Of a DNA stretch of 64,000 bases, positions 5,401 through 46,185 are shown one piece after another. Position 1 is the first letter of the stretch, and each line of letters starts with the position of its first letter. The DNA comes from a virus: IMG/VR virus record IMGVR_UViG_3300049929_000026, positions 73,619 to 137,618 of that record; one strand, 5' to 3'. The translations under genes were made by a program, and so were the position numbers. A model generated the notes under the pieces. The model had not been told where the DNA came from. It made no database searches and saw only the letters and a list, made by a program, of their open reading frames with translations.

Positions 5401-5912
5401 CCCATCGCTGGGGTGGGTTCTGGGCGGTGCTGGCCGGGGGTGTGTTGGTCGGCGTAGAGGGTTCGTTGGCGGCGCTGTTGCGGCTTCTGTGGGCTCATGC
5501 TCGTGGCTTGAGGGGTGAGGCAGGGTGGGTAGGGGTGGTCAGGTGACCGCTTGGCCTGGCGCTTGCTTATGCCGTCCCTCATGAGGGAAACAACGAAGGC
5601 TCGACCGTTGGCTGATTTCTACACGCAGCACCTGGGGACTCCGACGGCTGGAGCAGGGACTGCGGAGCATCTGACCTACGTCCGCATGCGGCGCGTCCAG
5701 ATGGCGTCAGGAGCTTGGGGCTGGGCTCAGCGCTCGGTGCCTGGACAGAACCGGCGAAGCGCTGGGGCTGGGGTGCGGCAGCTCCGATAGCTGGGGGCGC
5801 CCAGGTGATTGGGGCTTCCTGTCGCCGTACCGAGTTCCCGATGCGCATCCCCAGGAAGAGCGGGGCTCCGTGCGACCCGCTTTCTATAGACGTGCAGCAA
5901 AACCGTGGGCGA

Positions 5913-6362
5913 TCACGTCCCAGTTGCGTCTCGATCAAGCTCCGCCATCTGGGCTATGAATGTGGCGGTAAGCTTCTGTTTCTGTTCGAGAATCCGAATG
6001 CGTGAACCATGGTCATTCACTCGGCGGCGGAGGTCCTTGCATTCCAGGCCGATTTCGATCGTGTTCTTCTCCAGGTCGTCGATCGCTTTGAGCGTCTCTT
6101 GTGGCAACAGATCCTCCAGTGCGCGCTTGCTCACGTAGAGGGCGCGCCCCACGCGCTTAGCGTAAGTGGTGGCGTTCCTGCGCTCAAGCGACCGTAGGAG
6201 GCGGTAGACGTACTTGCGGCGCGTCGCGCGCGTCATGCTGGCGAGCTTCGGGTGGCTGGGCTCGAGGATTTTGGCGAGCTCCACGAGCAGGAACCATCGG
6301 TCGCGGCGGGGCCTCACGGGTCGAGTCCTGGCAACGGGATATCGCCGCGCGCTTCGAGCCAT
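5913..6362 (-). CDS. hypothetical basic, probably DNA-binding protein (paralog of 6823..7245)
   Basis: Shares RPRRxRW...ERRxxxxYxKRxG motif and C-terminal coiled coil with 6823..7245. Confidence 0.6.
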   Translation of the reverse strand: MARSARRYPVARTRPVRPRRDRWFLLVELAKILEPSHPKLASMTRATRRKYVYRLLRSLERRNATTYAKRVGRALYVSKRALEDLLPQETLKAIDDLEKNTIEIGLECKDLRRRVNDHGSRIRILEQKQKLTATFIAQMAELDRDATGT

Positions 6363-6826
6363 CGGCGGCGGATATCCACCTCACTCAGATCGGGGCGCCG
6401 GGCCAGCCAACGCGGGAGCGTCAGGTCGGTCTTGTTGCTATTGCAGGGCTGGCAGGCCGGAGCGAGATTCCCCTCATCGTGTCGACCGCCGCGCACGAAG
6501 GCGACGATGTGGTCGAGCACGAGCAGATCGGCCCGTGTTCCACAATACAAGCAGGAGTAGCCGTGAAGGCGTTCAAGACGCCAGCGCAGTCCGACTGGGT
6601 GAGGCGAGCGACGGGCCGCGATTGCGCTAAGCGGCTGCCGCAGTGATTCCGTGATCGTCAGGTCCTCATCCGGCGCCTGGCCCCACCGGCCGAATGCACG
6701 TTCCTTGGCCAGCCGAAGCGCTCCCAAGCCACCACCATCCGCATCCAAGCTCGACTCGAAAATTAGACGCTTGAAAGCCTCCTCGAACCGCTCCCCGTCA
6801 TAGGCGGTACCGCGTCGGCGCGTCAC
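6314..6826 (-). CDS. HNH endonuclease
   Basis: CLYCG...LDHIVAFVRGGRHDEGNLAPACQPCNSNK. Confidence 0.9.
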   Translation of the reverse strand: MTRRRGTAYDGERFEEAFKRLIFESSLDADGGGLGALRLAKERAFGRWGQAPDEDLTITESLRQPLSAIAARRSPHPVGLRWRLERLHGYSCLYCGTRADLLVLDHIVAFVRGGRHDEGNLAPACQPCNSNKTDLTLPRWLARRPDLSEVDIRRRWLEARGDIPLPGLDP

Positions 6827-7245
6827 GGCAGCAACTTCCGTTCGATTTCCGCGAGGCGTAGCGCCTGGCCACGGATGAGCGCTCCCTGCGCCTTTATCGT
6901 CGCTCTCAGCCTTTTTAGTTCCGCCTCCAGAAACTCCACCCCCGGATCGCGCTGCCCGTGTTCTTTGGCGCTAGCCAACAGCGGCAGGCAGACCCTTTTG
7001 ACGAAGATGTCTCCACCGGCTCGCTTCGTGTATGCCGCCGAATCGCGACGCTCAGCGCTGCCAACGAGCCGGCGAACCGCTTCGCGTTGGCGTTTCCTGT
7101 CCTTGTCGGCGATCTTCGTCCAGAACGCCGGGTGGTGTTCAGGTAACGCACCGAGAACCTCCGGCATGGAGAGCCAGCGTTGGCGACGAGGTCTCATCCT
7201 GGCCAGCTCGGTAGCAACGAGTCGACGCCATCGGGGCATTTGCAT
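6823..7245 (-). CDS. hypothetical basic protein (paralog of 5913..6362)
   Basis: Paralogy as above; stop/start overlap with the HNH gene. Confidence 0.6.
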   Translation of the reverse strand: MQMPRWRRLVATELARMRPRRQRWLSMPEVLGALPEHHPAFWTKIADKDRKRQREAVRRLVGSAERRDSAAYTKRAGGDIFVKRVCLPLLASAKEHGQRDPGVEFLEAELKRLRATIKAQGALIRGQALRLAEIERKLLP

Positions 7246-7546
7246 CTTCCCGGACGCTTATGGCACTCGGCGCAGAGATCTAACTCCGCATGCTCGGCGA
7301 AAGCCTCGTCCCCCACCGCCATCCGTATCTGTTGCTCTATCAGAGCTCGACCGCGAGCCTTCACATCGATCGCGTCACGGAGCCTCTCGTTGATTACGGC
7401 TCGATTGGATTTCTGGCGTTTGGTCGGTTGAGTACTCGGGGCATCGGATGCAGCGAGTACTCGTTCGGCGGCGGCTGGGGTGAGCCACCGCCTTATTTGA
7501 CCTCGTTCGGCGTCACTTAGGCGCGCCTTCCCGGTCTCCCCCCCCC

Positions 7547-8005
7547 TCACGACTCACTCACCGGAAAACAGATGTCGCGCTTCCAGAGCTCGAAAGCGTA
7601 CAAGGCGTCCGACTTCTGCAGCCGCCCGGCCGAAGTCGCCTGCCAGTTCTGCCCGTCGTCGATCACGCAGGTCAGGCACAAGAGCTCGCCGCGCTTGGCC
7701 CGCTCGAGCAGGACTTCGAGGTGCTGGATGATGACCGCCGAGTACTCTGACCGGCTGGTGTCGATGGCGCGGAGGTTTGTGGGCGCTCGGCCGGACTCTC
7801 TGACCTCGACCGGCTGTCCCAGGACGTCCGTGGCGGCTAGGTCCGGCGGCTCGGTCTCGCGCGCTACCAGCTCGGTCGGCGTCTCACCGCAGATCACGCA
7901 CGGAAACTCGAATCCCGGCACCTGCCCGATGCTTTTCTCCTCGCAGCCCGGCTTCCGGTGCTTCTCGCAGCGCCAGTTCCGGCGGACGAGCTTGATCTCG
8001 GTCAT
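7547..8005 (-). CDS. hypothetical Zn-finger protein
   Basis: CEKHRKPGC and CVIC; ATGA coupling with upstream gene. Confidence 0.55.
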   Translation of the reverse strand: MTEIKLVRRNWRCEKHRKPGCEEKSIGQVPGFEFPCVICGETPTELVARETEPPDLAATDVLGQPVEVRESGRAPTNLRAIDTSRSEYSAVIIQHLEVLLERAKRGELLCLTCVIDDGQNWQATSAGRLQKSDALYAFELWKRDICFPVSES

Positions 8006-8937
8006 TCCGCCGCCTGGGCCGCCGCCAGACCGCGTTCCATCGCCTCAGCGAAGGCAGCCTCGCTCATCCGCATCAGCACCCCGCCACGCCGCCCCTGGCC
8101 GCCCTGGCGCGGCTCAGTGGTCAACTGACAACGTGCGCGTCCGGTGCGGTCCTGAAAGCTCCTGAGGCCCGGCACGGCGCGCTTGGTCGCGAACCAGATG
8201 TCGTGCGCCTCGGCGTCCGCGGCGTGCGCTCGGTTCAGCGCCTCCCGAACTAGCTTCGCCCGGCGCGCCTGCTCGGACCGGTTGATCTTCCCCTTCCGGA
8301 CTGGGGCGGGCTCGACGCAGGCGACGAACAGCTGGGCCGCGTCGTCGCAGAGTTCAAAGGCCAGCGCCGCGTAAACTCCGAGCCCCTCGTTGGTGTTCGT
8401 ATTGCTACCCGTCCGAGTTGGGTCGTGTTGGCCCACGCGGCCGTCTGAGCCCTCAACATACCGATCCTTGGCTCCGAAGCCTTGGTCAGCCCGATACTGT
8501 GCTCTAGGGGCGCTGTAGCGCTTGCAGAGGGTGTTCTGGGTGGCGGCCGGCACAAGTCGCCAGGCTGCCATCAGGTGCCGATGCAGCTCGATCTCGCCGA
8601 TTCCGAGTACGCCTACGCCTAGCTGCATATCGGTAAAATGGTGCTTGTAGCTCCCTGCGCCGTCGAGATTGCCGGTCCCCCCAACCGAGCCGCGCTCAAT
8701 TTGAGAGACCACGCCGGCCAGGGTGCCGCTTGCGCCCATCGCGGCGTCACCGCAAAGCAGAAACCACGCGAGTTGGTCGTCGTAAGACCCGTCTCGGGCT
8801 GGCCGAGGTCGGCGGTCTTTTGGAAGCTCGCGCGGCGACTCGACGGCCACGCGCGGCACGAGGGTCAATGTAGGCGCTAGGACAACCGACTCACTGGTTA
8901 CCGGGATCAACTCGGTAACCGCTTGCAATTCGGACAT
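8002..8937 (-). CDS. hypothetical protein (position typical of a late-gene regulator)
   Basis: 311-aa ORF with AGGAG RBS; function inferred from position only. Confidence 0.6.
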   Translation of the reverse strand: MSELQAVTELIPVTSESVVLAPTLTLVPRVAVESPRELPKDRRPRPARDGSYDDQLAWFLLCGDAAMGASGTLAGVVSQIERGSVGGTGNLDGAGSYKHHFTDMQLGVGVLGIGEIELHRHLMAAWRLVPAATQNTLCKRYSAPRAQYRADQGFGAKDRYVEGSDGRVGQHDPTRTGSNTNTNEGLGVYAALAFELCDDAAQLFVACVEPAPVRKGKINRSEQARRAKLVREALNRAHAADAEAHDIWFATKRAVPGLRSFQDRTGRARCQLTTEPRQGGQGRRGGVLMRMSEAAFAEAMERGLAAAQAAE

Positions 8938-8945
8938 ATTTGAGA

Positions 8946-9025
8946 CACTCCTTGGGGGGTCAGGGCGGTTCCAGGAGTGCTGAGACCCCGAGGCGAGCTG
9001 TGGCGGCTGGCTTCGGGGTTTTGTT
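8946..9025 (-). promoter_or_regulatory. two leader hairpins, one pairing with the RBS of 8002..8937
   Basis: CACTCCT 8946-8952 pairs with AGGAGTG 8973-8979; ACCCCGAGGC...GCTTCGGGGT stem at ~8985-9019. Confidence 0.5.
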
Positions 9026-9028
9026 CGT

Positions 9029-9301
9029 TCAACTGCTAAGCAAACTCTCCTGCTCAGCGGCCCGCAGTTGTCTGAGCTGCGCTTCGATCCGCTGAGAATC
9101 CACGGTTGGGACGCCGTCGCGCGCCCAAATGCTCCAGATCCTCTCTGCTTGGCAGAGGCTCTCGCTGTCGCCGGTCGCAGCCATTACGCAGCACCTATCG
9201 ATGACCCAGAGCACGTCGTTCGGCTCTAACCCGCCTATGTCAGAATCAGTGCCAGCTTGCGACATTGTCTTCAGAAACATCCCGCGGATCCTTTCCGTCA
9301 T
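9029..9301 (-). CDS. hypothetical protein
   Basis: 90-aa ORF in operon orientation. Confidence 0.45.
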   Translation of the reverse strand: MTERIRGMFLKTMSQAGTDSDIGGLEPNDVLWVIDRCCVMAATGDSESLCQAERIWSIWARDGVPTVDSQRIEAQLRQLRAAEQESLLSS

Positions 9302-9332
9302 CAGTACAGCGCCTAGTACAACGCCTTCCCGA

Positions 9333-9348
9333 CTCTCAACACCTGACT
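9333..9348 (-). repeat. solitary half CRISPR repeat (3' 16 nt AGTCAGGTGTTGAGAG)
   Basis: Exact match to the 3' 16 nt of both array repeats, same orientation. Confidence 0.8.
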
Positions 9349-9383
9349 CTTTTTCTCTTCGTCAGCGGTGGTCACGTGACAAC

Positions 9384-9412
9384 ACGTTACACTGCCTTGC
9401 GGCGGTTTGCCA
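9384..9412 (-). promoter_or_regulatory. putative sigma-70 promoter TGGCAA-N17-TAACGT abutting the palindrome at 9368
   Basis: 17-bp spacing counted; lies 35 nt upstream of the half repeat. Confidence 0.5.
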
Positions 9413-9439
9413 CTGTGAGGCGCTGGCGAGCGCCACAAA

Positions 9440-10014
9440 TCAAGCGGCTTTTGCTTTTCCAACCTGCTTCTGCAGCCGGGCGTTCTCCCGCTTCAGCGCC
9501 GTCACCTCCTTCGTGAGCGCCGCCACCTCGGTCTTTAGCCGGGCATTTTCCAGCTCTAAGCTGCCCTGCCGCTGGACGGCCCGGGTTGACGGAGCCAATG
9601 GGGCTTTCTTCTCGATCACGCCGTTGACGATACGTCGCACCTCCTTGGGGCTCGGCGCGCAGTGGTTTGCGTTGATGAACTGATCGAGCGACGCCTCGAC
9701 GAGCTGAACATTCGCCGTGTCAGCGGTGGCGCCTGGCGCCAGAAGGGCATGGCAAGACTCCACTCCAAGCGCCCGCACGCGATCCACGCCGTAGATCTCG
9801 ATCGCCTGGATCACGTTCCCATAACGGTTGAGCCCCATCGCGTTTGGGAACTCCCGCTGCAGGAAGTCACTGAACATCGGCGTCTCTGGCGTCTTCCAGA
9901 TGCCCTGCGTCTCTACTGCTCGAAGCTCGAGGAAGAGATCAACTCCGCTCTCCAGCCAGTTAGCTAGGAGCGTACGGATTTTGGATACGGCTTGTTCATA
10001 TGCTTGATTGCTCA
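9440..10014 (-). CDS. hypothetical protein with C-terminal coiled coil (possible DNA-binding regulator)
   Basis: Start MSNQAY with GGAG RBS directly after the last array repeat; WKTPETPMFSDFLQREF motif. Confidence 0.65.
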
Positions 10015-10025
10015 TTTTAACTCCA

Positions 10026-10132
10026 CTCTCAACACCTGACTTTTCTCTGATCCGTTCCGAGAGCTGGATTCGCACAGCTGAGGACGGGTGCCCAACCTCT
10101 CAACACCTGACTTCTCTCTGATCCGTTCCGAG
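10026..10132 (-). CRISPR. mini CRISPR array: two 36-bp repeats, one 35-bp spacer
   Basis: Repeats 10026-10061 and 10097-10132 (CTCGGAACGGATCAGAGA[A/G]AAGTCAGGTGTTGAGAG on minus, 1 mismatch); spacer 10062-10096; 54 nt downstream of the Cas12-like gene. Confidence 0.85.
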
Positions 10133-10186
10133 CGGTCATCAAGACCGCCAGCAAATTCGCGCTCTTGCCGTCCGCTTTGCGAGCGG

Positions 10187-11812
10187 TCACTCCGCGGCCC
10201 CTGCTTCTGGGGCCAGAGAATCCGAACCGCTCGCAGTCTTGACGCCCTTCTTCCCGAGTCCGCGCTTCTTCGCGCCGGCCTCCTGCATCTTCGCTAGCGC
10301 GTGTTTCTTGCCCACATCGAGTAGATGATTCGCGCATGCGATACCATCCACCGATGCCTTCAATTGGCATTGCTCGCAACGAAACCAGGCCGGCACTCGC
10401 ACAACCCGTTTCCAGACCTCGCCGTCGATGCGTTTGAACTCAACGACGTTGTCGCGGTGCTCAACGTTCGCTTCCGATGTGTGCGAGCAAGCCGGACATC
10501 GCTGCGAGACGAAGCGCGCGTTCTTGTAGTGCGTCCGGATCCCCACCTTGGTGAGCGCCCGATCGATCGTCTGCTGGCTTTCGTAGTAAGGCCACTGATG
10601 GATCAGTCGCTTCAGCTCGCTGTGGGCCTGTCCCTCGGTCTGCTTCTCGAAGTTCTCCCGGATCCCGGTCATGTTCTCCATAAACACGTCGCTAACTCCA
10701 TGAAGCGTGCACCAGCGAGCGAAGTCCGCCGCGCGCTGCCGGATCCGGTCCTTGACTCGCCGCGCTTCTCGATCGCCGATGGCAGTCAGCGGGAGTTCGC
10801 GACGCTTCACGCCGCGTCCGCGGGACCCGCTGCCATGGGCACGCATTCCCTTTGCGATGCGGCGTCTCTGCGCGGCATATTGCTCACGCATCGCGATGAT
10901 GTCAGTCCCCGGATCTTCCCACGTTGTGCCGTCCTCGGACATCGCCAGCATGAACACGTTGATCCCGAAGTTGCAGGCTACCGCATTGCCTGCCTTGTAG
11001 CCTTCGGCTCGGTGCTGAGACCACGAGATGAGCGCGAACCATTTACGCTTTCGCTCGTCGAACTTGATCCCGACCTTTCCAAGCTTGATCGACGCCTTCT
11101 CTTCGAGTTCGAACAGAGCTCGGTCCCTAGCCGCGCGCGCTGCCTTCATTACCTTGTCAGTGGCGTCTTTCGGGAGCGGTTTCTTGGCGGATCGCTCGAG
11201 CTCCACCACGCCTGCTCGGTTGCCCGCTCCACCCACCAGTTGCCTCCAAAGAACCACGGCGTTGCCGCCGCAAGGTGCAACAACGAGAGACGTTGCACCT
11301 TTGCCGGTGCCAAAGAAAGGGAAGGTGAGCCGGGCATCGTCAGGTGTCCCTGAGACTTCGCAGTTGCGTCCCTCCGAGAAGAAGGACTTGCCGGACCCTT
11401 CGAACGTCGGCACGCCCGCGCGACCAGCCAGCAGATCCTTGAGATGCTGCCCAGCGAAGCGCGAAAGTATGTGGTCCGAGGTTTCGCTACACAGAACGTC
11501 CCCGGGCGGGACGTGAGCCGCTGCGTAGTCTTTGCCTGACTTCTTCAGCATGTACGCGCATCGTCGCTCCATGCCGCGAGCCCAATGGAATCGCAGCCGC
11601 TTACGGACATCGTTCTGCCAGGTCGTGCTTGGTTTCTGCTTCTCCGATATCGCCTCGAGTTGGGAAATGGCGCCAGGGTATACGTCACGTAGCGAGAGAT
11701 TCAGCGCCATCGGCAGTGTCTCGCGAAGGGCTCGCATTCGCGCTCCGAGTTCGCTCCAGCTACCATTTGCTGGCTTGACGATCTCAACCTTGAGCGTCCC
11801 TGCCAGCTTCAT
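10187..11812 (-). CDS. TnpB/Cas12f-like type V effector, RuvC-I catalytic Asp replaced by Asn
   Basis: 541 aa; RuvC-I VACNFGIN, bridge helix, RuvC-II VFMENM, SQRCPAC...FRCEQC Zn finger, RuvC-III VDGIACAN; GGAGGA RBS; adjacent array. Confidence 0.85.
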   Translation of the reverse strand: MKLAGTLKVEIVKPANGSWSELGARMRALRETLPMALNLSLRDVYPGAISQLEAISEKQKPSTTWQNDVRKRLRFHWARGMERRCAYMLKKSGKDYAAAHVPPGDVLCSETSDHILSRFAGQHLKDLLAGRAGVPTFEGSGKSFFSEGRNCEVSGTPDDARLTFPFFGTGKGATSLVVAPCGGNAVVLWRQLVGGAGNRAGVVELERSAKKPLPKDATDKVMKAARAARDRALFELEEKASIKLGKVGIKFDERKRKWFALISWSQHRAEGYKAGNAVACNFGINVFMLAMSEDGTTWEDPGTDIIAMREQYAAQRRRIAKGMRAHGSGSRGRGVKRRELPLTAIGDREARRVKDRIRQRAADFARWCTLHGVSDVFMENMTGIRENFEKQTEGQAHSELKRLIHQWPYYESQQTIDRALTKVGIRTHYKNARFVSQRCPACSHTSEANVEHRDNVVEFKRIDGEVWKRVVRVPAWFRCEQCQLKASVDGIACANHLLDVGKKHALAKMQEAGAKKRGLGKKGVKTASGSDSLAPEAGAAE

Positions 11813-11829
11813 TGAAAATCCTCCAAGTG

Positions 11830-12075
11830 ATTCAAGGCAACCATCGACCGGCTAGTCAGGTGTTGACCATGCGACAAGCGCGTGGTCCTGCGGCCGAAGC
11901 CACTCAGCGAGTACGAAGACTCGCTATCTCGACGGTAGATCGCCGGTATTACCGGTCGTTGGCTGCCTTCAATCACTGTTCCAAAATAGAACCGACTCAT
12001 GTAGACCTGCTCCTGTCCGTTTACGCGGACCATGCCCGCGGTCGTGTGATAGCGACGCGCGGGCAACTTCAATCG
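11830..12075 (-). ncRNA. putative tracrRNA/scaffold with anti-repeat at 11854-11866; boundaries approximate
   Basis: Minus-strand TCAACACCTGACT is the exact complement of repeat AGTCAGGTGTTGA; overlaps a doubtful 89-aa ORF. Confidence 0.55.
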
Positions 12076-12316
12076 CACCCCCCGGGCTGGCTGTCAAGTG
12101 ACCACCAAAGCCCGGCGCCTCTCGTTCCTGCTTGTCGCTACTGACGTGATTCCAGTGATTACGCGTCTTTGCGGCGTCCCGGTCGCTCTCCGGGCGCCCC
12201 GGAGTTGCCTGGGCGCAATGTTCGCTTTAGCCTAAACAACAGGTCCAAGCACGTCGGCGCAAGCCGAAGGACGCCTCCGCCACGGGGTAACGCTGCCTAG
12301 CCCGGTAGGGCACGCA

Positions 12317-12895
12317 ATGTTCAACTTAGACAAATTCGCCAATGCGGTGCTGCTCGTGTTGAACGAGAGTCCGTCGCCGCCTGGGTTGACGGTGCTTCTG
12401 AAGGTGCTGTTTCGGTCGGACTTCGCACACTATCAGGAGCATTTGCGTTCGATCACCGGAGTGGAGTACGTGGCACTCGAGCGCGGACCTGTTCCCCACG
12501 ACTACCGCTCGCTTCTTCAGAAGCTAGCAAGCCGGGGCGACGTTGTGGCCGAACGTGTCGACGTTGCCTCGGGCTACAAGCCCATGGAGTGCTACCGCGC
12601 GCTCCGCCGTCCGGATCTCGCGGCCTTCGATCCGAGCGAACTTGCGGTGCTACGCGCGGTCATTGCGGCGGACGCGGGCAAAACGGGAAAGCAGCTGAGC
12701 GACGAGACACATGCCGAACTCCCTTGGCGGGCTGTCTGGCGCGACGGGGAAGGCGAATCCGCCCAGATCCCCTATGCCCTCTCTCGCTGGGAAGAGAACC
12801 GTTGCAATGCGGCGGACCTCACTCAAGCCGCAAACGAGCTGCAGCGAACCGATGTGCAGGCGGTGATTGCGCAACTTGTTCGACCAACTGGCTAG
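12317..12895 (+). CDS. Panacea (DUF4065/SocA-like) antitoxin-domain protein
   Basis: LTVLLKVLFRSDFAHY...SITGVEYVALERGPVP...KQLSDETHAELPW. Confidence 0.8.
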   Translation: MFNLDKFANAVLLVLNESPSPPGLTVLLKVLFRSDFAHYQEHLRSITGVEYVALERGPVPHDYRSLLQKLASRGDVVAERVDVASGYKPMECYRALRRPDLAAFDPSELAVLRAVIAADAGKTGKQLSDETHAELPWRAVWRDGEGESAQIPYALSRWEENRCNAADLTQAANELQRTDVQAVIAQLVRPTG

Positions 12896-12979
12896 CCAGC
12901 AGCCGTGCCGAGACACATGCCACTGGTGCGGCGCTCCGTGCCGTTCGAATCGGATGTTGCCGCGCTGCGAATGCGATAT

Positions 12980-13270
12980 GCGGCGACCCGGCGATTGCCG
13001 AGGCGCACCTGCCGCTGATTCACTTGGTGTTCTCGAATTTCAAGGCGTGGCTGCAAGGGACTCACCATTCTGTTTCTCCGAAGCATTTGCAGGCCTATGC
13101 CAACGAATACGTGTTCCGGTTCAATCGGCGGTTCTACCCGCTCAACGGGTTCCGATCGCTGTTGGGGCTCGGCGCGCTGCGCGAGGCGCCGACGTACGAT
13201 GAGCTGTACTCGGATGCGTGCGTACATCCCGTCGCAGTTGGTCCGTGGGAGCTAACCGGATGAGCATGGA
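12980..13270 (+). mobile_element. IS1595-family transposase 3' remnant with probable right end
   Basis: LPLIHLVFSNFKAWLQGTHHSVSPKHLQAYANEYVFRFNRR is the IS1595 DDE C-terminus; N-terminal part absent. Confidence 0.8.
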
Positions 13271-13386
13271 AATAACATCGGTCTGCGGCTTGCCGTTGTC
13301 ACCGGCAGAGTCAGCGCGGACTTCGAGCTCCACGGGGAGCAGCATGAGACGCTACAGGATACGCTGCCGAGAAAAGTGAGAAGGAA

Positions 13387-13620
13387 ATGCTAGCTTCAGG
13401 ATTCCTATTAATCGTGTTCGGATTCTTCTGCCTGATCTTCATGACGATCGAAAAGGTCGGCAGGAACGCTAGACGTCGCCTGATGCTTGCCGAGCACGAG
13501 CGGCGGAAGGCAATGCTCTATCTGGAACATGGCCGACAAGTCCGTGCCTTGTACGAGAGCCACCGAAAGCGCGCGCCGGAAAAGTTCCACGCTCCGCCAT
13601 ATGACGTGGAAGAATCATGA
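13387..13620 (+). CDS. small single-TM membrane protein
   Basis: AAGGA RBS; hydrophobic N-terminal 20 aa. Confidence 0.55.
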   Translation: MLASGFLLIVFGFFCLIFMTIEKVGRNARRRLMLAEHERRKAMLYLEHGRQVRALYESHRKRAPEKFHAPPYDVEES

Positions 13621-13776
13621 GCCGCGCGCGACGTCAGCAGAAGCGCCGTGCCCGCGCTTGGCAGCTCGAGGTGAGGGACACCGTGTACGGGTGGCGCGCC
13701 GCGTGGTTGATGGGTGATCGAGAGCGCTTCAAGGTGCATTGCTACTCGCGGGTTGAAAGGCGGTTCGATCGAGTGG

Positions 13777-14346
13777 TCACGTGACCACCTTGATCCCGTT
13801 CGTCGCCGCTTGCGATCTGTCTATCGGCAGCCGCCCATGGCACGAGTTTTCTCCGGGCCTTGGGAAGTTCAACGCCGCAAACTCGCCGAAATACTCGCGA
13901 GCCGCCGCGTCGTATGCCCGGGCAGCGTCCTCCTCATCCGTGAAGTACCCAAGGTGTTTTGGGACGTGTGTTTTCTGGTAGTACTGGCCGCCAGAGATCA
14001 TGGCTCGCCATTTCTTGCCGCGCTTGTACCAAGCAACACCTTTGAATCTAGACGTGCCAGTTGTACGAGCGCGCATATTGAAGTGATTTTTGGCAGTCGT
14101 CGTCGCTCGCAGATTTGTGCGGCGATTATTCAGCCCATCGCCGTCTCGGTGATCTACCTCCTCTGCGTCGGACAGGATCACTCGATGCATTAGCAACAGC
14201 TTCTGTTCACCGTTTTCGCAATGAAGCCTGCGGGCGTACCAAGTGTTCCGATGCTGCCAAGCGTGCCAAGTCTTTCCCGCAAAGAGGTGCGCGTCAGCCT
14301 CGTCTACGATCGCCTTCATTCCGTTGCTAAGAATGATCTCCGTCAT
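13777..14346 (-). CDS. HNH-AP2 homing endonuclease-like protein
   Basis: VDHRDGDGLNNRRTNLR (HNH) plus SRFKGV...HLGYFTDEEDAARAYDAAAREYFGEFAALNFP (AP2). Confidence 0.92.
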   Translation of the reverse strand: MTEIILSNGMKAIVDEADAHLFAGKTWHAWQHRNTWYARRLHCENGEQKLLLMHRVILSDAEEVDHRDGDGLNNRRTNLRATTTAKNHFNMRARTTGTSRFKGVAWYKRGKKWRAMISGGQYYQKTHVPKHLGYFTDEEDAARAYDAAAREYFGEFAALNFPRPGENSCHGRLPIDRSQAATNGIKVVT

Positions 14347-14383
14347 GAATTGTTAGTATACGACAGCGGTGGTCAACTGACCA

Positions 14384-17194
14384 CTAAGCGGACCGACGAA
14401 TCGACTTCTTGTCGAGGTATGCCTGCGCGATTTTCTTCATTCGGTCCAGGTCGACTTCTTGAGGCAGATCGTTGCCGACTTTCAGATCTCGTACGCCTTC
14501 AAGCTGCGCGCGCTTGATTCCCAAAATGTCGCTGATCACCGGATCGGATCCCTCGTCGGCGAGTAGGAAATAGGAGAACACGGGAAGCAGCTGGCCATCG
14601 CGGTGAATCCTGGTGTCGTTCTGCTCATGGATCCCAGGGCTATAGTCGAGCTCAGCGGACACGACGTTATTGCAGACGTGCTGAAGCCCGTCGAGCCCCT
14701 CACCGGAACGCAGGCTCATGATCAGGATCTTGGTTTCGCCTGCGATAAAGCGCCGCTTGGACTCCTCCTTCTCTTTGACCGATTCGAGTCCCGTGTAGAA
14801 AGCGGGAGCGAAGTCCTTCAGCTTATCGCGCAGCACGTCATACACGGCGTGATGCCACGCGAAGCACACAACTGACTCGCCGCCCTCCACCAGCATCCTC
14901 AGGAACTCCGCCACATACGGCGCCTTCGCCAGCCCCGTAGATTGGCGCAACAGATTGTCGAGCTTGCCTGCGGCCTGCATGCGCGCACCCTTCGACATCT
15001 CACCCTTCGCGAGAATCGTGCGCGCCAAAGCCGTGGCTTGACCATCGACAGCATCGAGCACCTTTTGATCGAAATCGATGTAGTGCGGGATCCGCGTAAG
15101 CGCGGGCAACTGACGTCCGACGTCTTCCTTCGTGCGCCGAATCATCAATCCGGAATCGCGCAGGTACGAGCCCATCGCCTCAGGTGATTTGAGTTTCAGT
15201 TTGCCGGGCTTGTCGGCGTCTCCGGTGCAGTGCTCCTGCTTGAATTCGCTGAGCAGTCCGAGCGCGCCAGGGCGAATGAATTCCATCACGTTCCAGAGCT
15301 CGCCGCCGAGATTTAGAAATGGAGTTCCGGAGAGGCCGATTCGGAACTGAACCCGGCGGGATATTTTCATCGCGGCCTTGCCCTTATTGGTGTCCTCGCC
15401 ATTTCTAAATTCGTGAACCTCGTCATAGACGACGCTCCCTAACTTCACGAGTTGTGCCTGTCCGGCGAGCTTTTCGTTTCCAGAGAGATAGTCGCCCCAT
15501 CCTGGGATCTTCGAATAGCTCGTGATGATCACATCAGGCAGAACGCCGCCGCATTGTTTCGCGATGTCATATGGACGCGTTCCTCTCAAAATGTGCGTCG
15601 ACATGCGCGGCAAGAACTTGCGAAGCTCCGCTTGCCACTGCGATGGCAGGGCAGTCTTCGTCACCACGAGCGCGGGGCGTGTTCGCGGGTCGGTCAAAGC
15701 ACAGGCGGCAGAGATCGTGTTGTGCGTCGCGAGATACCCGTCTGTCAGATATAGATGACGTTTTGAGCTGACCCGGATACATTGGACTGGTTTAATCCCC
15801 GCAGGTTCGACTGTTTTGATAGCGCGGGCCATCAACGGCATACGCCATCGCTCAGCCTTGCGTTTGAGAGCGAATGGGCAAATCGGTATACGGATATGTA
15901 CCGTATATGAGAGACGCCCCTGACGGCGCTCCCCAAGATGTTCGTAATTAGTGTGTCGGCTGTACAACGACGCGAACCCACCTAATGTACCAACAAGATC
16001 TTGTACGCCCTCCGCCAATGGCAAAGAGGTCGATGTGAACGTGACGGTACCGCTCGTTCCACATGTGCCATCCGTGTCCATCAGCCCCTTGAGTAGAGCC
16101 AAACGATCGCTCACTGCGGCGCACAGGTACTCATGCGGGATAGTCTTTTCCCACGAGCGCTTCCCAGCCAGCCCTAACGCGCGCAACGCTTCTATCAGCG
16201 CGTTTTTTTGTCCACCGCGATTCCCGCTGGTAATGTTGTAGTCGAAATTGGACCCGCAAACGGGATGTAGCCATAGCCCGGGCGGAAGCGCAGATATCAC
16301 ATGATCAAGAATTTCTTGATCAGCAGATGATATTGCAACTCCTGCCTGCTTTAGATGCCCATCTCCCAAGAGAACCCCGAGCAGATACGCTGGTATCGGC
16401 AATGGGGGCGCCGGGGCAAACGTGACCGGCTTGGATATTGGCAGGAAGTACTTCGAGTTGACCCTCCCTTTGCCCATGTCGGTATTCAAGGACTTGCGGA
16501 TCTCTGAGAGCGGCAATGTCCTGCTCTTACCGGTATATCGGTCTTGCGCAGTGTGGACGGTCCATAGATGCTCATCGCAGCATTCTGCGGATGCTCCGTC
16601 GGCTGTTGTAACACGAAACACGGGGCGATCTCCTTGTGGAAATATCGCTTCGACGAATGCCGTGCCGCCGTCCGGATCGCTGATTTCATCGCCCACGGCG
16701 AGCTCGCCCATTTTCCTCCAACCATATGGAGTGAGAACCACTGCGTCTAATGGCTGAGCCTTGCCCAGGCCCATCTGGTCGCCGATGAGCACCCCACCTG
16801 TCCGCAGCGCGAGCTCCGCTGCCACCTTCTGGTAGTCGCGTGGCGGCAACGCGAGTTTGAATTCTTGCGGTTTACGCGCTGGGTCCCCGATAATTTGGTG
16901 GACCGCAAATTCCGCTTCGCGGTGTTCATTCGCGCGTCGCGCAAGCCGGATCTCGCTCTCCTTATCGACGTAGTCGAACGGGAACCGTGATTGAAACCAC
17001 TCGATGTCCCGTGACACCTCAGGCGTGTCCATGATGCAGATGATCTCGCGCGTCTTTCCCGCTTGGTATCGCGGCTTCGACATTCGCGGGAACACGCGAC
17101 GCATGCGCAATAACACGTGTGGATCGCACTCAATGATCCAAGAACCATGGTGGTACTTTAGCGTCCCGTAGGTTTTGATCTCTTCTTTGCTCAC
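14384..17194 (-). CDS. SNF2-family helicase containing an intein
   Basis: DQMGLGK|T Walker A split by intein, DEVH, LSGTP, MIRRTK, GEGLDGL, RIHRDGQ. Confidence 0.93.
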   Translation of the reverse strand: MSKEEIKTYGTLKYHHGSWIIECDPHVLLRMRRVFPRMSKPRYQAGKTREIICIMDTPEVSRDIEWFQSRFPFDYVDKESEIRLARRANEHREAEFAVHQIIGDPARKPQEFKLALPPRDYQKVAAELALRTGGVLIGDQMGLGKAQPLDAVVLTPYGWRKMGELAVGDEISDPDGGTAFVEAIFPQGDRPVFRVTTADGASAECCDEHLWTVHTAQDRYTGKSRTLPLSEIRKSLNTDMGKGRVNSKYFLPISKPVTFAPAPPLPIPAYLLGVLLGDGHLKQAGVAISSADQEILDHVISALPPGLWLHPVCGSNFDYNITSGNRGGQKNALIEALRALGLAGKRSWEKTIPHEYLCAAVSDRLALLKGLMDTDGTCGTSGTVTFTSTSLPLAEGVQDLVGTLGGFASLYSRHTNYEHLGERRQGRLSYTVHIRIPICPFALKRKAERWRMPLMARAIKTVEPAGIKPVQCIRVSSKRHLYLTDGYLATHNTISAACALTDPRTRPALVVTKTALPSQWQAELRKFLPRMSTHILRGTRPYDIAKQCGGVLPDVIITSYSKIPGWGDYLSGNEKLAGQAQLVKLGSVVYDEVHEFRNGEDTNKGKAAMKISRRVQFRIGLSGTPFLNLGGELWNVMEFIRPGALGLLSEFKQEHCTGDADKPGKLKLKSPEAMGSYLRDSGLMIRRTKEDVGRQLPALTRIPHYIDFDQKVLDAVDGQATALARTILAKGEMSKGARMQAAGKLDNLLRQSTGLAKAPYVAEFLRMLVEGGESVVCFAWHHAVYDVLRDKLKDFAPAFYTGLESVKEKEESKRRFIAGETKILIMSLRSGEGLDGLQHVCNNVVSAELDYSPGIHEQNDTRIHRDGQLLPVFSYFLLADEGSDPVISDILGIKRAQLEGVRDLKVGNDLPQEVDLDRMKKIAQAYLDKKSIRRSA
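15719..16759 (-). mobile_element. 347-aa class 3-type intein with LAGLIDADG endonuclease
   Basis: Starts AQPLD, ends ATHN before Thr; EHLW, VQCI, ATHN (WCT signature); LLGVLLGDG and LKGLMDTDG motifs. Confidence 0.9.
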
Positions 17195-27754: not shown

Positions 27755-28536
27755 GATCGCTCCAGCGTCAGTCGCGAATATGGGCACACGAATCCCTGCA
27801 GCATAGAGATCGCAGCGTCCTGAAGCGTCCCGACGACGGAGACGACAAGCAGGGCAGCGAACACCGCGTCGAGCTGGAAGTGTTTCCCATAGTCGATCAT
27901 CAGCACGCCGACGCCGCCGCCGGATCGCACGAGCCCCTCGACCATCGTCAACATTGCCCAGCCCATTGCAGCGTTCTGCCGCGTCACCTCGAAAGCATCC
28001 GACGCCCTGCCCAAGATGACGACCTCCCAGACAGCCCGCCAGTCGCCCATGCGCAGCGAGCGTGCCTGATCAAACGCCGACCTCGGGATCGAGGCCACGA
28101 TAGAAGCCATCGACGTAACCTGAAACACGGTCATCCCGAAGGTGAGCAGCGCGATCTTCAGTGGGTCACCGCCACCGAACGCGATGGTGAAGACCACGAT
28201 GAGCCCAGGCAGGCTCAGAAAACGGGCTTTCCCCACGACGACAGCCAGCGGGCGCAGCGCGGCGACGACCGTCAGGTAGGACAACGCGAGCGAGATCAGT
28301 GTCGACAGCAGTAGAGCTTCGAGGTTCACCCGCATGCTATGGAACACGAGCTCATAGAGCAGCCCATCGTCCCGACACAGCCGGGCGAGCGCGGACAAGA
28401 TCTGAAGCGGCGAAGGGAGCAGGATCGCTGAGCCGAGGGTCCAGGCGGCGAGAGCGAATAGCGCCCAGGCTGCCCAGATCATCGTCAGCGCGGTCCCCGT
28501 CACCGATCGATTCGGTCTCAGGGCATCGAGCATCAC
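27751..28536 (-). CDS. ABC transporter permease (TauC/SsuC-like)
   Basis: About 6 TM segments, LLPSP, EAA-like DQARSLRMG loop. Confidence 0.9.
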   Translation of the reverse strand: MMLDALRPNRSVTGTALTMIWAAWALFALAAWTLGSAILLPSPLQILSALARLCRDDGLLYELVFHSMRVNLEALLLSTLISLALSYLTVVAALRPLAVVVGKARFLSLPGLIVVFTIAFGGGDPLKIALLTFGMTVFQVTSMASIVASIPRSAFDQARSLRMGDWRAVWEVVILGRASDAFEVTRQNAAMGWAMLTMVEGLVRSGGGVGVLMIDYGKHFQLDAVFAALLVVSVVGTLQDAAISMLQGFVCPYSRLTLERS

Positions 28537-44364: not shown

Positions 44365-45429
44365 TGAAAGGCCTCCGACTGCTGACGTTGGAACGTGGCC
44401 TTTGCCACTTCGGTCATGCTCGAAAGCTTCGAGCCTAGCTTCTTCTTGAAGTCGTCCCACGGTGGCAGGTGCTTCCCGAACAAACACCACGCGAGATAGA
44501 GCAGATTTGGCAGGAGCATCGCCTCATCACGAACGACCGTGTTTAGTATCTGAAGTGCGAGGAATATCTGGAAGTTCCTCGTCCAGAGCGGGAGGCGAAA
44601 ACCGAACAGGAAAACGAGGAACTCGTTAGCGACGAACATGCCGGCAACCGTTGCGACGTGGAATAGCAGGTTGCCGATGGTCGGTATACGAAGGATGTGA
44701 TCGATCACTGTGTCACCATCCAGCGTGTTGCCATCGAACAGGAGCGACGGCGCGGGCGCACGTCGCGCAGCACGAACGACTCGCGCAATCGGCGAGCGAA
44801 GAACTCCGCTCGGCGCACAGCTCGAGACATGCAGGCCCAACGGGAGAAGGTATCGAGGTAGCGCTGCAACTCTTCGCCAAACTCGCGAACCAGGCGCTGG
44901 GTCTCGGTTTCCTGCGCAATAGAGTGCGAATGGCTGAAGTTGGCGCTGGTCCAGCTGCTATCGTGGGACAGCACTCCACTTGTGCCGTAGACCGTTACAC
45001 CATGGCTAGTCGTGATGGTTATCGTCCATATGGGCGATGTGGAGACGGTGGTTGTGTAGTCGGGAGTCAAGTGACCACTCCGTTGGAGACCCCCTGGAGG
45101 ATCATGGTTTGGCACCCGTCATTAGCAAATAACCAGCACACACGAGCTTCGGTTCACCGTCCGCATCGAGTGCCTTGTGGCAGTAGAATTCGTCCCGCTC
45201 GGCCATGCATTTGACAGCGTTCATGAGCGTTGATGGACACTGGTTCGGTACCGTCCCTAGCCGGAACGCGCAGTCGTCGCAGCGTTTCCGCGCACCGGCG
45301 TCCGCCAGTGACTCGGCCCCGTCGCAGAGACGTGCAAGCTCGCGCCCGAGCTCCGCGCCTTCGGGGCTTGGAATGTTCCGAATAGCCGGCGCGCCCGGTG
45401 CGGGCGGCTCGCTGTATGGCCAGGGAGCG

Positions 45430-46185
45430 CTAAGCACGACGGCGCCCCGATGATGCGTTCCGCGCGACTTCTAGTTCTCGATCGAATTGAGAAGGGAGTA
45501 GCTCGCACTCCATTCCGTTCCAGTTGAAGTTGGTTTCTCCGCGGAGGTGCGCTTGCACAAGCTCCGGATCCGATGCGGGTCGTTTCGACCGCCAGTGGGA
45601 CCGTACCCAGTTGCGTAGCGCAGTTCGCCGACTCCTGCCCTCCGGCAAGTCTCGGAGCTTGAATGCTTCCCGCGCCCCAACGGGGTCGGTGGGAATGGTC
45701 GCTGATAATTGTCCCGGCGCCGCTCTGAATCGAACCCTCCACTCATATCGATCCGCCAGCATATTTGCGATCAAATCGATCATCAGAGGCTCCTCGCTGC
45801 GCCCCCTGGCGCGAGTGAGCTCATGCCCATCAAGCATGCTGAAGACGCTTCGTCCTCTGGCGACAGCCGGCGAGTGAATGGCTTCCACAATCTTGCCGCG
45901 CACGACATCTGCGACTGCAACCTCGAGAGTCCTGCCGGGGTAGAATCGCTTCGCCCCCAGCGCGCGGGCTTGCGCTTTGCTTATCTCACGGATCAACGTC
46001 AGCTCATTCGAGCTAGAGTTAAATTGGCGATAGCAGATTCGGTGCGCCCAGTCCTGTTCGGACGCATCGTAGTGCAGCGGCATCGTGCTGCCCGGCATCT
46101 GGACGATCGCGCCGTCCCAAAGCGTCGAGCGGGGAAGGCTCAGAATAGAATCTATTCGCTCGACCTGATCATCAATGTCGCTCAT
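45430..46185 (-). CDS. hypothetical protein
   Basis: GAGG RBS; VRSHWR...VQAHLRG motif. Confidence 0.6.
   Translation of the reverse strand: MSDIDDQVERIDSILSLPRSTLWDGAIVQMPGSTMPLHYDASEQDWAHRICYRQFNSSSNELTLIREISKAQARALGAKRFYPGRTLEVAVADVVRGKIVEAIHSPAVARGRSVFSMLDGHELTRARGRSEEPLMIDLIANMLADRYEWRVRFRAAPGQLSATIPTDPVGAREAFKLRDLPEGRSRRTALRNWVRSHWRSKRPASDPELVQAHLRGETNFNWNGMECELLPSQFDRELEVARNASSGRRRA

Follow-up and report, generated by a model that had tools for sequence, protein, structure and literature searches.

A phage recorded as IMGVR_UViG_3300049929_000026 carries, not far from a small CRISPR array (short palindromic repeats, clustered and regularly interspaced), a stand-alone half repeat that has kept exactly the part of the repeat complementary to a trans-activating CRISPR RNA (tracr)-like RNA of the same phage, and that is followed by what may be a short guide. 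The stretch of DNA analysed (the window) comprises 64,000 nucleotides (nt), the last 64 kb of the 137,618-bp virus record, which is ~86% complete; DNA of the phage is also present in two soil-metagenome DNA runs. Our preferred reading, to which we would give a probability of about 0.45, is that the lone element functions as a truncated repeat-guide unit in the tracr-dependent, nuclease-dead Cas12f-like system that the phage itself encodes, comparable to the att-crRNA (crRNA, CRISPR RNA) of Cas12k. Such a one-unit gene could be called a 'delocalised crRNA' (compare Saito et al. 2021).

The minus strand carries all genes from ~12100 down to ~5900 and is read in the order tracr-like region, 541-amino-acid (aa) open reading frame (ORF), repeat 1/spacer/repeat 2, gene A, a 138-nt intergenic stretch that contains the lone unit, and gene B. 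Cognate effector, tracr and array all lie within 2.5 kb, in the same phage. The features that matter most are as follows.

11906-11925, minus strand: conserved scaffold hairpin of the tracr-like RNA, AGCGAG-loop-CTCGCT
11854-11866, minus strand: anti-repeat of the tracr-like RNA, TCAACACCTGACT, which complements the half repeat over its first 13 nt
10187-11812, minus strand: Cas12f/TnpB-like effector, 541 aa, with Asn in place of the RuvC-I Asp
10026-10132, minus strand: mini-array of repeat 1 (10132-10097), a 35-nt spacer (10096-10062) and repeat 2 (10061-10026), the repeats being 71 nt apart from start to start
9440-10015, minus strand: gene A, 191 aa, a conserved effector partner that separates the array from the lone unit
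9349-9368, minus strand: place of the missing 5' repeat half, purine-rich and 35% identical to the repeat, which is background
9333-9348, minus strand: stand-alone half repeat, AGTCAGGTGTTGAGAG, the exact 3' 16 nt of the CRISPR repeat, made up of the 13-nt tracr-pairing stretch and 3 linker nt
9303-9332, minus strand: candidate guide, the 30 nt after the half repeat, TCGGGAAGGCGTTGTACTAGGCGCTGTACT, which is also the 5' leader of gene B
9326-9303, minus strand: tandem 12-mer within the candidate guide, AGGCGTTGTACT/AGGCGCTGTACT, 11/12 identical
9029-9301, minus strand: gene B, an ORFan; 90 aa, or 83 aa with a start at the ATG of position 9280, whose ribosome-binding site is the better one

The half repeat and its anti-repeat

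The original prediction held that the exact 3' 16 nt of the repeat recur beyond the array, and they do, at 9348-9333, on the same (minus) strand as the array and 693 nt start-to-start downstream of repeat 2. The window has three exact copies of this 16-mer (at 9333, 10026 and 10097), and there is no further one in the 137,618-bp record. When up to three mismatches were allowed, the window gave four matches against 0.41 expected, a number reached by 0 of 100 shuffles; the fourth, which has 3 mismatches, is the anti-repeat stretch in its plus-strand complement. With up to four mismatches, the record gave 10 matches against 9.1 in shuffles, the exact ones being the three known copies. The 10-mer GTCAGGTGTT occurs four times (0.1 in shuffles). 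The description of the lone copy as a half repeat is accurate, as the 28 nt further 5' show no significant likeness to the repeat (p = 0.11 and 0.23 by shuffling), and 16/16 identity abuts ~35% identity with no intermediate decay. The sequence that follows was also given correctly, and the tandem 12-mer noticed in it is real: only one in 5000 shuffles of the 138-nt intergenic stretch produces such a tandem. There are four tandems of this kind in the whole record, and the 12-mer itself is found nowhere else.

What has been kept is, as had been supposed, the tracr-pairing part. The first 13 nt of the 16-mer are perfectly complementary to the anti-repeat at 11866-11854, which lies 41 nt upstream of the effector ATG, while the last 3 nt link to the candidate guide. 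The identity between lone copy and repeat ends exactly where the complementarity to the anti-repeat ends, at the 5' edge of the 16-mer. Moreover, the anti-repeat co-varies with the repeat in five loci, the window and four (L004, L017, L008 and L018) of the twelve loci that were brought together for comparison by profile scans and whose effectors show 33-55% identity: GTTGA goes with TCAAC in the window, GTTC with GAAC in L004, GTTT with AAAC in L017, GGAATGGTGTTG with CAACACCATTCC in L008, and GGAATGGAATTG with CAATTCCATTCC in L018. In all five, the anti-repeat comes after the conserved scaffold hairpin.

Transcription of a functional unit of this kind would run along the minus strand, and would more likely come by read-through out of the tracr-effector-array-gene A operon than from a promoter of its own. 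The stretch AGUCAGGUGUUGA of the RNA would then base-pair with the anti-repeat in the tracr-like RNA, whose coding stretch is upstream of the effector, the crRNA/tracr duplex would be loaded into the 541-aa protein, and the next 17-20 nt (UCGGGAAGGCGUUGUAC...) would guide DNA binding without cleavage. The most likely guide would accordingly comprise the first 17-20 nt of the candidate (9332-9313). In this family the handle precedes the spacer, so the 3' half of a repeat would serve the sequence downstream of it, and the keeping of this half, with the 5' half gone, rather argues for use.

Relatives of the effector and their truncated units

By itself, the effector matches the Cas12f TNB and OrfB_IS605 models below their curated cut-offs, and a profile of 26 effector relatives matches solved Cas12f chains with E = 9e-30. 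In the alignment with the Cas12f chain 8j12, residue N281 stands opposite the Asp of the chain's GIDLG motif. Not one of the 26 family members has Asp in this RuvC-I column, in which Asn is commonest and His, Arg, Val and Tyr make up the rest; the RuvC-II Glu and the RuvC-III Asp are mostly kept, and the zinc finger is kept. The 541-aa effector is therefore without the intact catalytic triad that is a criterion of type V-F (Cas12f). From the Cas12f-chain match, N281 and the complete loss of the Asp, it seems that the ~540-aa family is Cas12f-like, and that its members are probably RNA-guided DNA binders that do not cut. For a non-cutting effector, a self-matching or permanent guide would be harmless. 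The two closest effector relatives, P0002 and P0003, are 76% and 71% identical; no close relative was matched in the phages collection, and none was found by a single-protein scan of viral_contigs. Eleven of the 26 family members end in AAE, as does the gene A product of L017.

The original prediction of a unit with the tracr-pairing part only gains from the fact that such truncated units recur in relatives. By the thresholds used, units with only the 3' part of the repeat account for 1/3 of those in the window, 4/15 in L004, 2/7 in L017, 13/30 in L008, 11/28 in L018 and 1/5 in L005 (0/9 in L012 and 0/12 in L014). The truncated units of the window, L004, L017, L008 and L018 show 25-35% identity 5' of the paired stretch, against 84-100% from the paired stretch to the repeat end. 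As the per-position profile required a 9-nt seed inside the tracr-paired stretch, only the flanking positions are free evidence in this comparison. Half units are found in various places: those of L004 include some between anti-repeat and effector ATG, the half unit of L005 abuts the effector ATG, and the last half unit lies 67 nt (manual count) before the gene A ATG in L004 and 43 nt before it in L017. All nine repeat types of the family end, by reading, in AG.

An array lies between effector and gene A in the window, L004, L017 and L008, and after gene A in L007, L008, L012, L014 and L018 (L008 having arrays at both positions), so that the lone unit sits where relatives carry a second array. 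This bears on the possibility, raised in the original prediction as one that would undo it, that relatives might reveal no more than a decayed terminal repeat. Relatives do indeed have arrays at the same position, but their degenerate units keep the functional half and show no even decay.

Gene A itself deserves attention. Its homologue follows the effector in 10/10 loci that extend past the effector (L006 and L007 being near-duplicates), from which gene A (~190 aa) is, on gene order, a predicted and hitherto unrecognised core partner of the dead Cas12f-like family. Homologues lie at 6391-6912 in L004, 2889-3461 in L017, 5404-5949 in L008, 7156-7674 in L018, 7503-8033 in L013, 2226-2738 in L012, 7575-8099 in L014, 6156-6713 in L007 and 2098-2355 in L005. 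The gene A product has a C-terminal coiled coil, and weak leads point to helical DNA binders of the DUF3102/ParB type (feature score 0.91; structural template-modelling score, TM, 0.48). Gene B has no family match and no homologue besides itself, and its GC content at third codon positions (GC3) is coding-like.

Some further features of the relatives may be mentioned here. L007 and L013 contain repeated units of ~70 nt (L007 4420-4690 and 6730-7540, L013 5690-5990) in which scaffold hairpins of the tracr type run straight on into the repeat end and a short guide, with bare half-repeat units interspersed; judged by this arrangement, they are putative natural single-guide-like arrays. In G001, the phage record of L014 (effector 35% identical), repeats are dispersed 4-12 kb from the main array. 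They include a mini-array 12 kb away at 27977-28064 (plus strand) that reuses a main-array spacer, a solitary full repeat at 20372-20335 (minus strand) followed by AGGAGG and a 15-codon ORF, and, 4 kb away from the array, a near-full solitary repeat at ~19990-19955 (minus strand) whose end is 8 nt ahead of a long ORF's ATG. At ~20120-20085 (minus strand), the same record has a tracr-like full-length anti-repeat with a terminator hairpin. No dispersed repeat copies were found in G002. Adaptation genes were not seen among the ORFs examined in the array loci. In the window, a divergent SocA/Panacea-domain (antitoxin-like) gene at 12317-12895 (plus strand; Pfam E = 3.5e-13) adjoins the tracr region, a 189-aa ORF lies ~2 kb above the CRISPR locus (13777-14346, minus strand), and an HNH endonuclease gene ~3 kb below it (6314-6826, minus strand; Pfam E = 8e-11).

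Transcription, targets and rival explanations

The original prediction endowed the unit with a promoter and an operator, and hence with independent regulation. Three more features are relevant.

9419-9434, minus strand: short GC hairpin, GGCGCT-CGCC-AGCGCC, just past the gene A stop and without a T tract
9384-9412, minus strand: proposed promoter, TGGCAA (9412-9407), a 17-nt spacer and TAACGT (9389-9384)
9367-9384: palindrome copy with the core GTCACGTGAC at 9371-9380, consensus about GGTGGTCAnnTGACCACC

A considerable number of results weigh against a functional unit, and most of those given in this paragraph and in the two that follow the account of the palindrome are brought together for that reason. 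The letters TGGCAA-N17-TAACGT are certainly present, but each hexamer matches its sigma-70 counterpart at 3/6, which is chance level, and a sigma-70 consensus scan gave 0 promoter-like sites in 8800-12400. The stretch before the unit resembles the true array leader no more than marginally (p = 0.058). (A sigma-54 site, TGGCAA...CGCA, was considered and rejected, its GG-to-GC spacing being one nt short of the consensus.) Independent regulation finds no support in these results: the promoter match is of chance level, the genes are co-directional from ~12100 to 5900, and a scan found no terminator-like site between gene A and the lone unit, so that read-through is at least as likely as a promoter of the unit's own. 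The hairpin at 9434-9419 was rejected as a terminator because it has no T tract. It contains CGCTCGC, a 7-nt piece of a 12-nt motif, CGCTCGCAAAGC, that precedes arrays in this family, and the stretch after gene A shares just these 7 of the 12 nt. The complete motif immediately follows the upstream gene's stop codon, ~50-55 nt ahead of the first array repeat, and was found at up to one mismatch only at 10185-10174 (minus strand, after the effector) in the window, 2347 in L017, 5389 in L004 and 8152 in L014; it may be a leader signal.

Of the proposed operator, the palindrome remains and its role does not. The copy at 9371-9380 is real and belongs to an over-represented family: at up to one mismatch there are 15 copies in the window against 2.45 +/- 1.67 expected, and the 10-nt core has 26 copies at up to one mismatch in the whole record. 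Nothing ties this copy to a start site, however. Among looser copies, 21/35 are outside a rough GC3-filtered set of ORFs, and most are at gene junctions, so an operator over a start site at 9371-9380 is unsupported. The family could be a 'stoperator'-type protein-binding site or a REP-like (repetitive extragenic palindromic) RNA hairpin with a 7-bp stem. Its consensus is about GGTGGTCA(C/A)(G/T)TGACCACC, several copies overlap stop and start codons (GTGA), and copies in the window are at 5538, 9371, 12093, 13776, 25520, 36666, 37973, 41559, 43777, 45066, 47534, 54578, 58573 and 60390.

No target emerged for the candidate guide. In the record, its first 20 nt have no non-self match better than 16/20, which is chance level, and in 6000-14500, including the region upstream of tracr and effector, there is only a chance-level 9/10 seed match. 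Exact 20-mers of the guide are absent from viral_contigs, as are those of spacer 1 of the array. In 401 genomes of the phylum to which the L017 genome belongs, the 17-mer guide had 30 matches at up to one mismatch in 24 genomes, none of them exact, and a reversed control had 46 (manual count) in the same genomes. When the guides of all loci were compared with all compared DNA, only intra-array duplicates appeared, and the L004 and L014 arrays gave no match to phage records except for E = 0.2 matches to a GAC-rich spacer. Spacer 1 itself matches at 17 of its first 20 nt, and 13 of the first 14, at 45107-45126 (plus strand), within the 3' end of the minus-strand ORF 45102-45437 rather than at its start, and just upstream of a palindrome copy; by estimate ~0.01 such matches are expected by chance per query, several queries were tried, and we treat the match as weak.

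Other observations fall on the same side. No second repeat bounds the candidate guide, the single half repeat being all there is, and neither gene B nor the candidate guide has a counterpart in any relative locus compared. Contigs of the second soil sample are identical over 9154-9687, with no variation. The predicted fold of the RNA from 9445 to 9275 is unremarkable (z = -0.08). At -26.8 to -28.3 kcal/mol, the duplex formed with the tracr region does not stand out from those with shuffled tracrs (mean -23.7, sd 2.5, best -31.9 kcal/mol), and the case for pairing thus depends on exact complementarity and on covariation. Noise gives rise to half repeats as well: two half units in L017 start only 18 nt apart, which leaves a 3-nt 'guide' that cannot work. 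Lastly, guides are duplicated within or between arrays of one locus (L008 2767/5202 and 4906/6130; L018 8416/8556; L012 3020/3080/3146 and 3068/3134), from which it appears that arrays grow by segmental duplication and that junk copies therefore arise.

The main rival, which we think unlikely though well worth taking seriously, is that the 16-mer is a functionless relic, either the remnant of a former array after gene A or the product of a recombination breakpoint inside a repeat, still intact since the event was recent. Relatives carry arrays at this very position, duplication shapes the arrays of the family (as in L008, L018 and L012, and in the duplicated unit 12 kb from the main array of G001), and non-functional half units such as the L017 pair do occur. 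That target, promoter and downstream repeat were all not found is also what a relic would lead one to expect. The 5' half has no residual similarity, as a breakpoint would leave it, and a recent breakpoint inside the repeat would likewise leave the 16-mer intact. Such a breakpoint would nevertheless have had to coincide exactly with the edge of the tracr-paired stretch, truncated units of four other loci share this boundary, and 16/16 identity stands beside ~35% with none of the intermediate stages of decay. If the unit is a relic after all, it documents that arrays of the family erode from the 5' side of their repeats.

Two further possibilities take as their starting point the closeness of handles to genes. 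Repeat 2 stops 10 nt ahead of the gene A ATG, and a GGAG ribosome-binding site starts 1 nt after the repeat; gene B has the half repeat 31 nt ahead of its first ATG (52 nt ahead of that at 9280); the near-full repeat of G001 is 8 nt before its long ORF; and the L005 half unit adjoins an effector start. It is conceivable, but improbable, that the handle is an RNA-level leader element: the tracr would pair with the handle in the messenger, a host RNase or the effector would cut or occlude the 5' end, and the output of genes A and B would be tied to how much tracr and effector there is, DNA targeting playing no part. Natural tracrRNAs can turn messengers with repeat-like stretches into non-canonical crRNAs (Jiao et al., PMC8224270). 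On the other hand, in compact co-directional phage genomes the next gene follows any terminal repeat, and with 67 nt to the gene A ATG in L004 and 43 nt in L017 the overlap with the ribosome site is not conserved.

The second possibility is an altogether bolder one, and we would not expect it to prove correct. The phage might wire ordinary genes to the dead Cas12f by way of tracr-pairing handles in messenger leaders, each messenger being the guide and the complex sitting on its own template, in a self-templated RNA-guided feedback switch. Three cases of a handle in a leader would suit it (repeat 2/gene A, half repeat/gene B, and the G001 solitary repeat/long ORF), the only known perfect match of the candidate guide is its own template in the gene B leader, and a dead effector needs no discrimination between self and non-self. 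We do not prefer it, as the adjacency of terminal repeats and genes, and the lack of conservation in L004 and L017, apply to it equally. The position of the unit before an ORFan gene does at least make CRISPR-type control of single phage genes via their own leaders a testable hypothesis.

It is very unlikely that the 3' half of the repeat acts at the DNA level as a binding site for a protein such as the ParB/DUF3102-like gene A product, the 'arrays' then being iterated binding sites: gene A is always adjacent and its weak leads point to DNA binders, but the motif is not palindromic, and CRISPR is what fits the Cas12f-like protein, the unique spacers of 35 nt and an anti-repeat that co-varies within a conserved structured RNA.

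Comparison with known systems

We found no description of the ~540-aa family or its half-repeat units in the literature, although the supplements or Extended Data of PMC13472631 and PMC10910872 and Table S1 of Hsieh & Peters could hold relevant loci. Two kinds of solitary repeat RNA had been offered as alternatives from the outset, and neither fares well. Like the phage unit, CreR, CreA, scaRNA and the solitary repeat units of type V-A (bioRxiv 10.1101/2023.03.03.530964 and 10.1101/2023.03.10.532045) are degenerate stand-alone repeats beside a cas locus that may provide a regulatory guide; this is their usual form, and with a non-cutting effector any match would repress. They act, however, through a partial match to the promoter of a cas or toxin gene, and for the phage guide there is no promoter match above chance, whether in 6000-14500 or in the rest of the record; nor is there a spacer between two degenerate repeats, the phage having a single repeat and no two-repeat mini-array at this site. 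That the guide represses the effector operon or a toxin gene in this manner is accordingly hard to credit. The main text of the survey of regulatory mini-arrays (10.1101/2023.03.03.530964) has 0 mentions of V-F or Cas12f.

Equally far-fetched, in our view, is a Racr-type decoy, in which the lone repeat RNA would sequester a related effector, be it the host's or a rival phage's. Solitary repeat units of phages do act so (PMC10651486), and dead effectors of phages with tracr have been proposed to derail host CRISPR (PMC10910872). Such decoys normally lack a cognate effector, which is their defining mark, whereas the repeat here is the phage's own and its cognate effector, tracr and array are adjacent.

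The mRNA-derived non-canonical crRNAs of Jiao et al. (PMC8224270) offer a partial parallel, in that a guide can arise from a messenger containing a stretch that complements the anti-repeat, and here the handle lies in the gene B leader. They concern Cas9 and fortuitous partial matches; the present candidate is one of type V, with an exact, hard-wired copy of the repeat end.

Closer are the single guide RNAs of dCas12f-sigmaE and the array-associated dCas12f cluster (Hoffmann, Wiegand et al., PMC13472631), which likewise involve RuvC-inactive relatives of Cas12f that are expected to bind DNA without cutting. Their guide formats span the range from arrays to fused scaffold-guide RNAs, and fused forms are found here in L007 and L013. 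Those dCas12f proteins are of ~365 aa, with C-terminal truncations and a sigma factor or helix-turn-helix (HTH) partner, and are mostly from Bacteroidota. The phage family differs in its ~540 aa, in having kept the zinc finger and the RuvC-II/III residues and lost only the RuvC-I Asp, and in being always accompanied by gene A, though it may overlap with the array-associated cluster.

The best comparison is with the att-crRNA of type V-K (Hsieh & Peters, bioRxiv 10.1101/2021.02.06.429022). The effector there is also a tracr-dependent type V protein that is naturally nuclease-inactive, the unit also keeps only the tracr-pairing part of the repeat and coexists with a normal array, and it is also encoded at the end of that array or further 3' to it. 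The differences are nonetheless substantial. The phage effector is Cas12f-like and not Cas12k, its nearest solved relatives being Cas12f chains. V-K is associated with Tn7-like transposition genes, and the element here is a phage; for the DDE transposase, the rve family had 0 matches in the 137.6-kb record (a control matched in 6/14 genomes). [quoted passage not shown] Finally, a conserved protein gene comes between the phage unit and the array, and the unit has an ORFan gene right beside it. By analogy, then, the lone unit may quite possibly work as the V-K att-crRNA does, while not being a member of that system. If it is functional, the format of a handle with a short guide would not be peculiar to Cas12k transposons, but general in nuclease-dead, tracr-dependent type V systems, including a phage family of the Cas12f-like kind, and the minimal handle for the ~540-aa family would be 13 paired nt plus 3, which would be useful in testing and reprogramming the protein.

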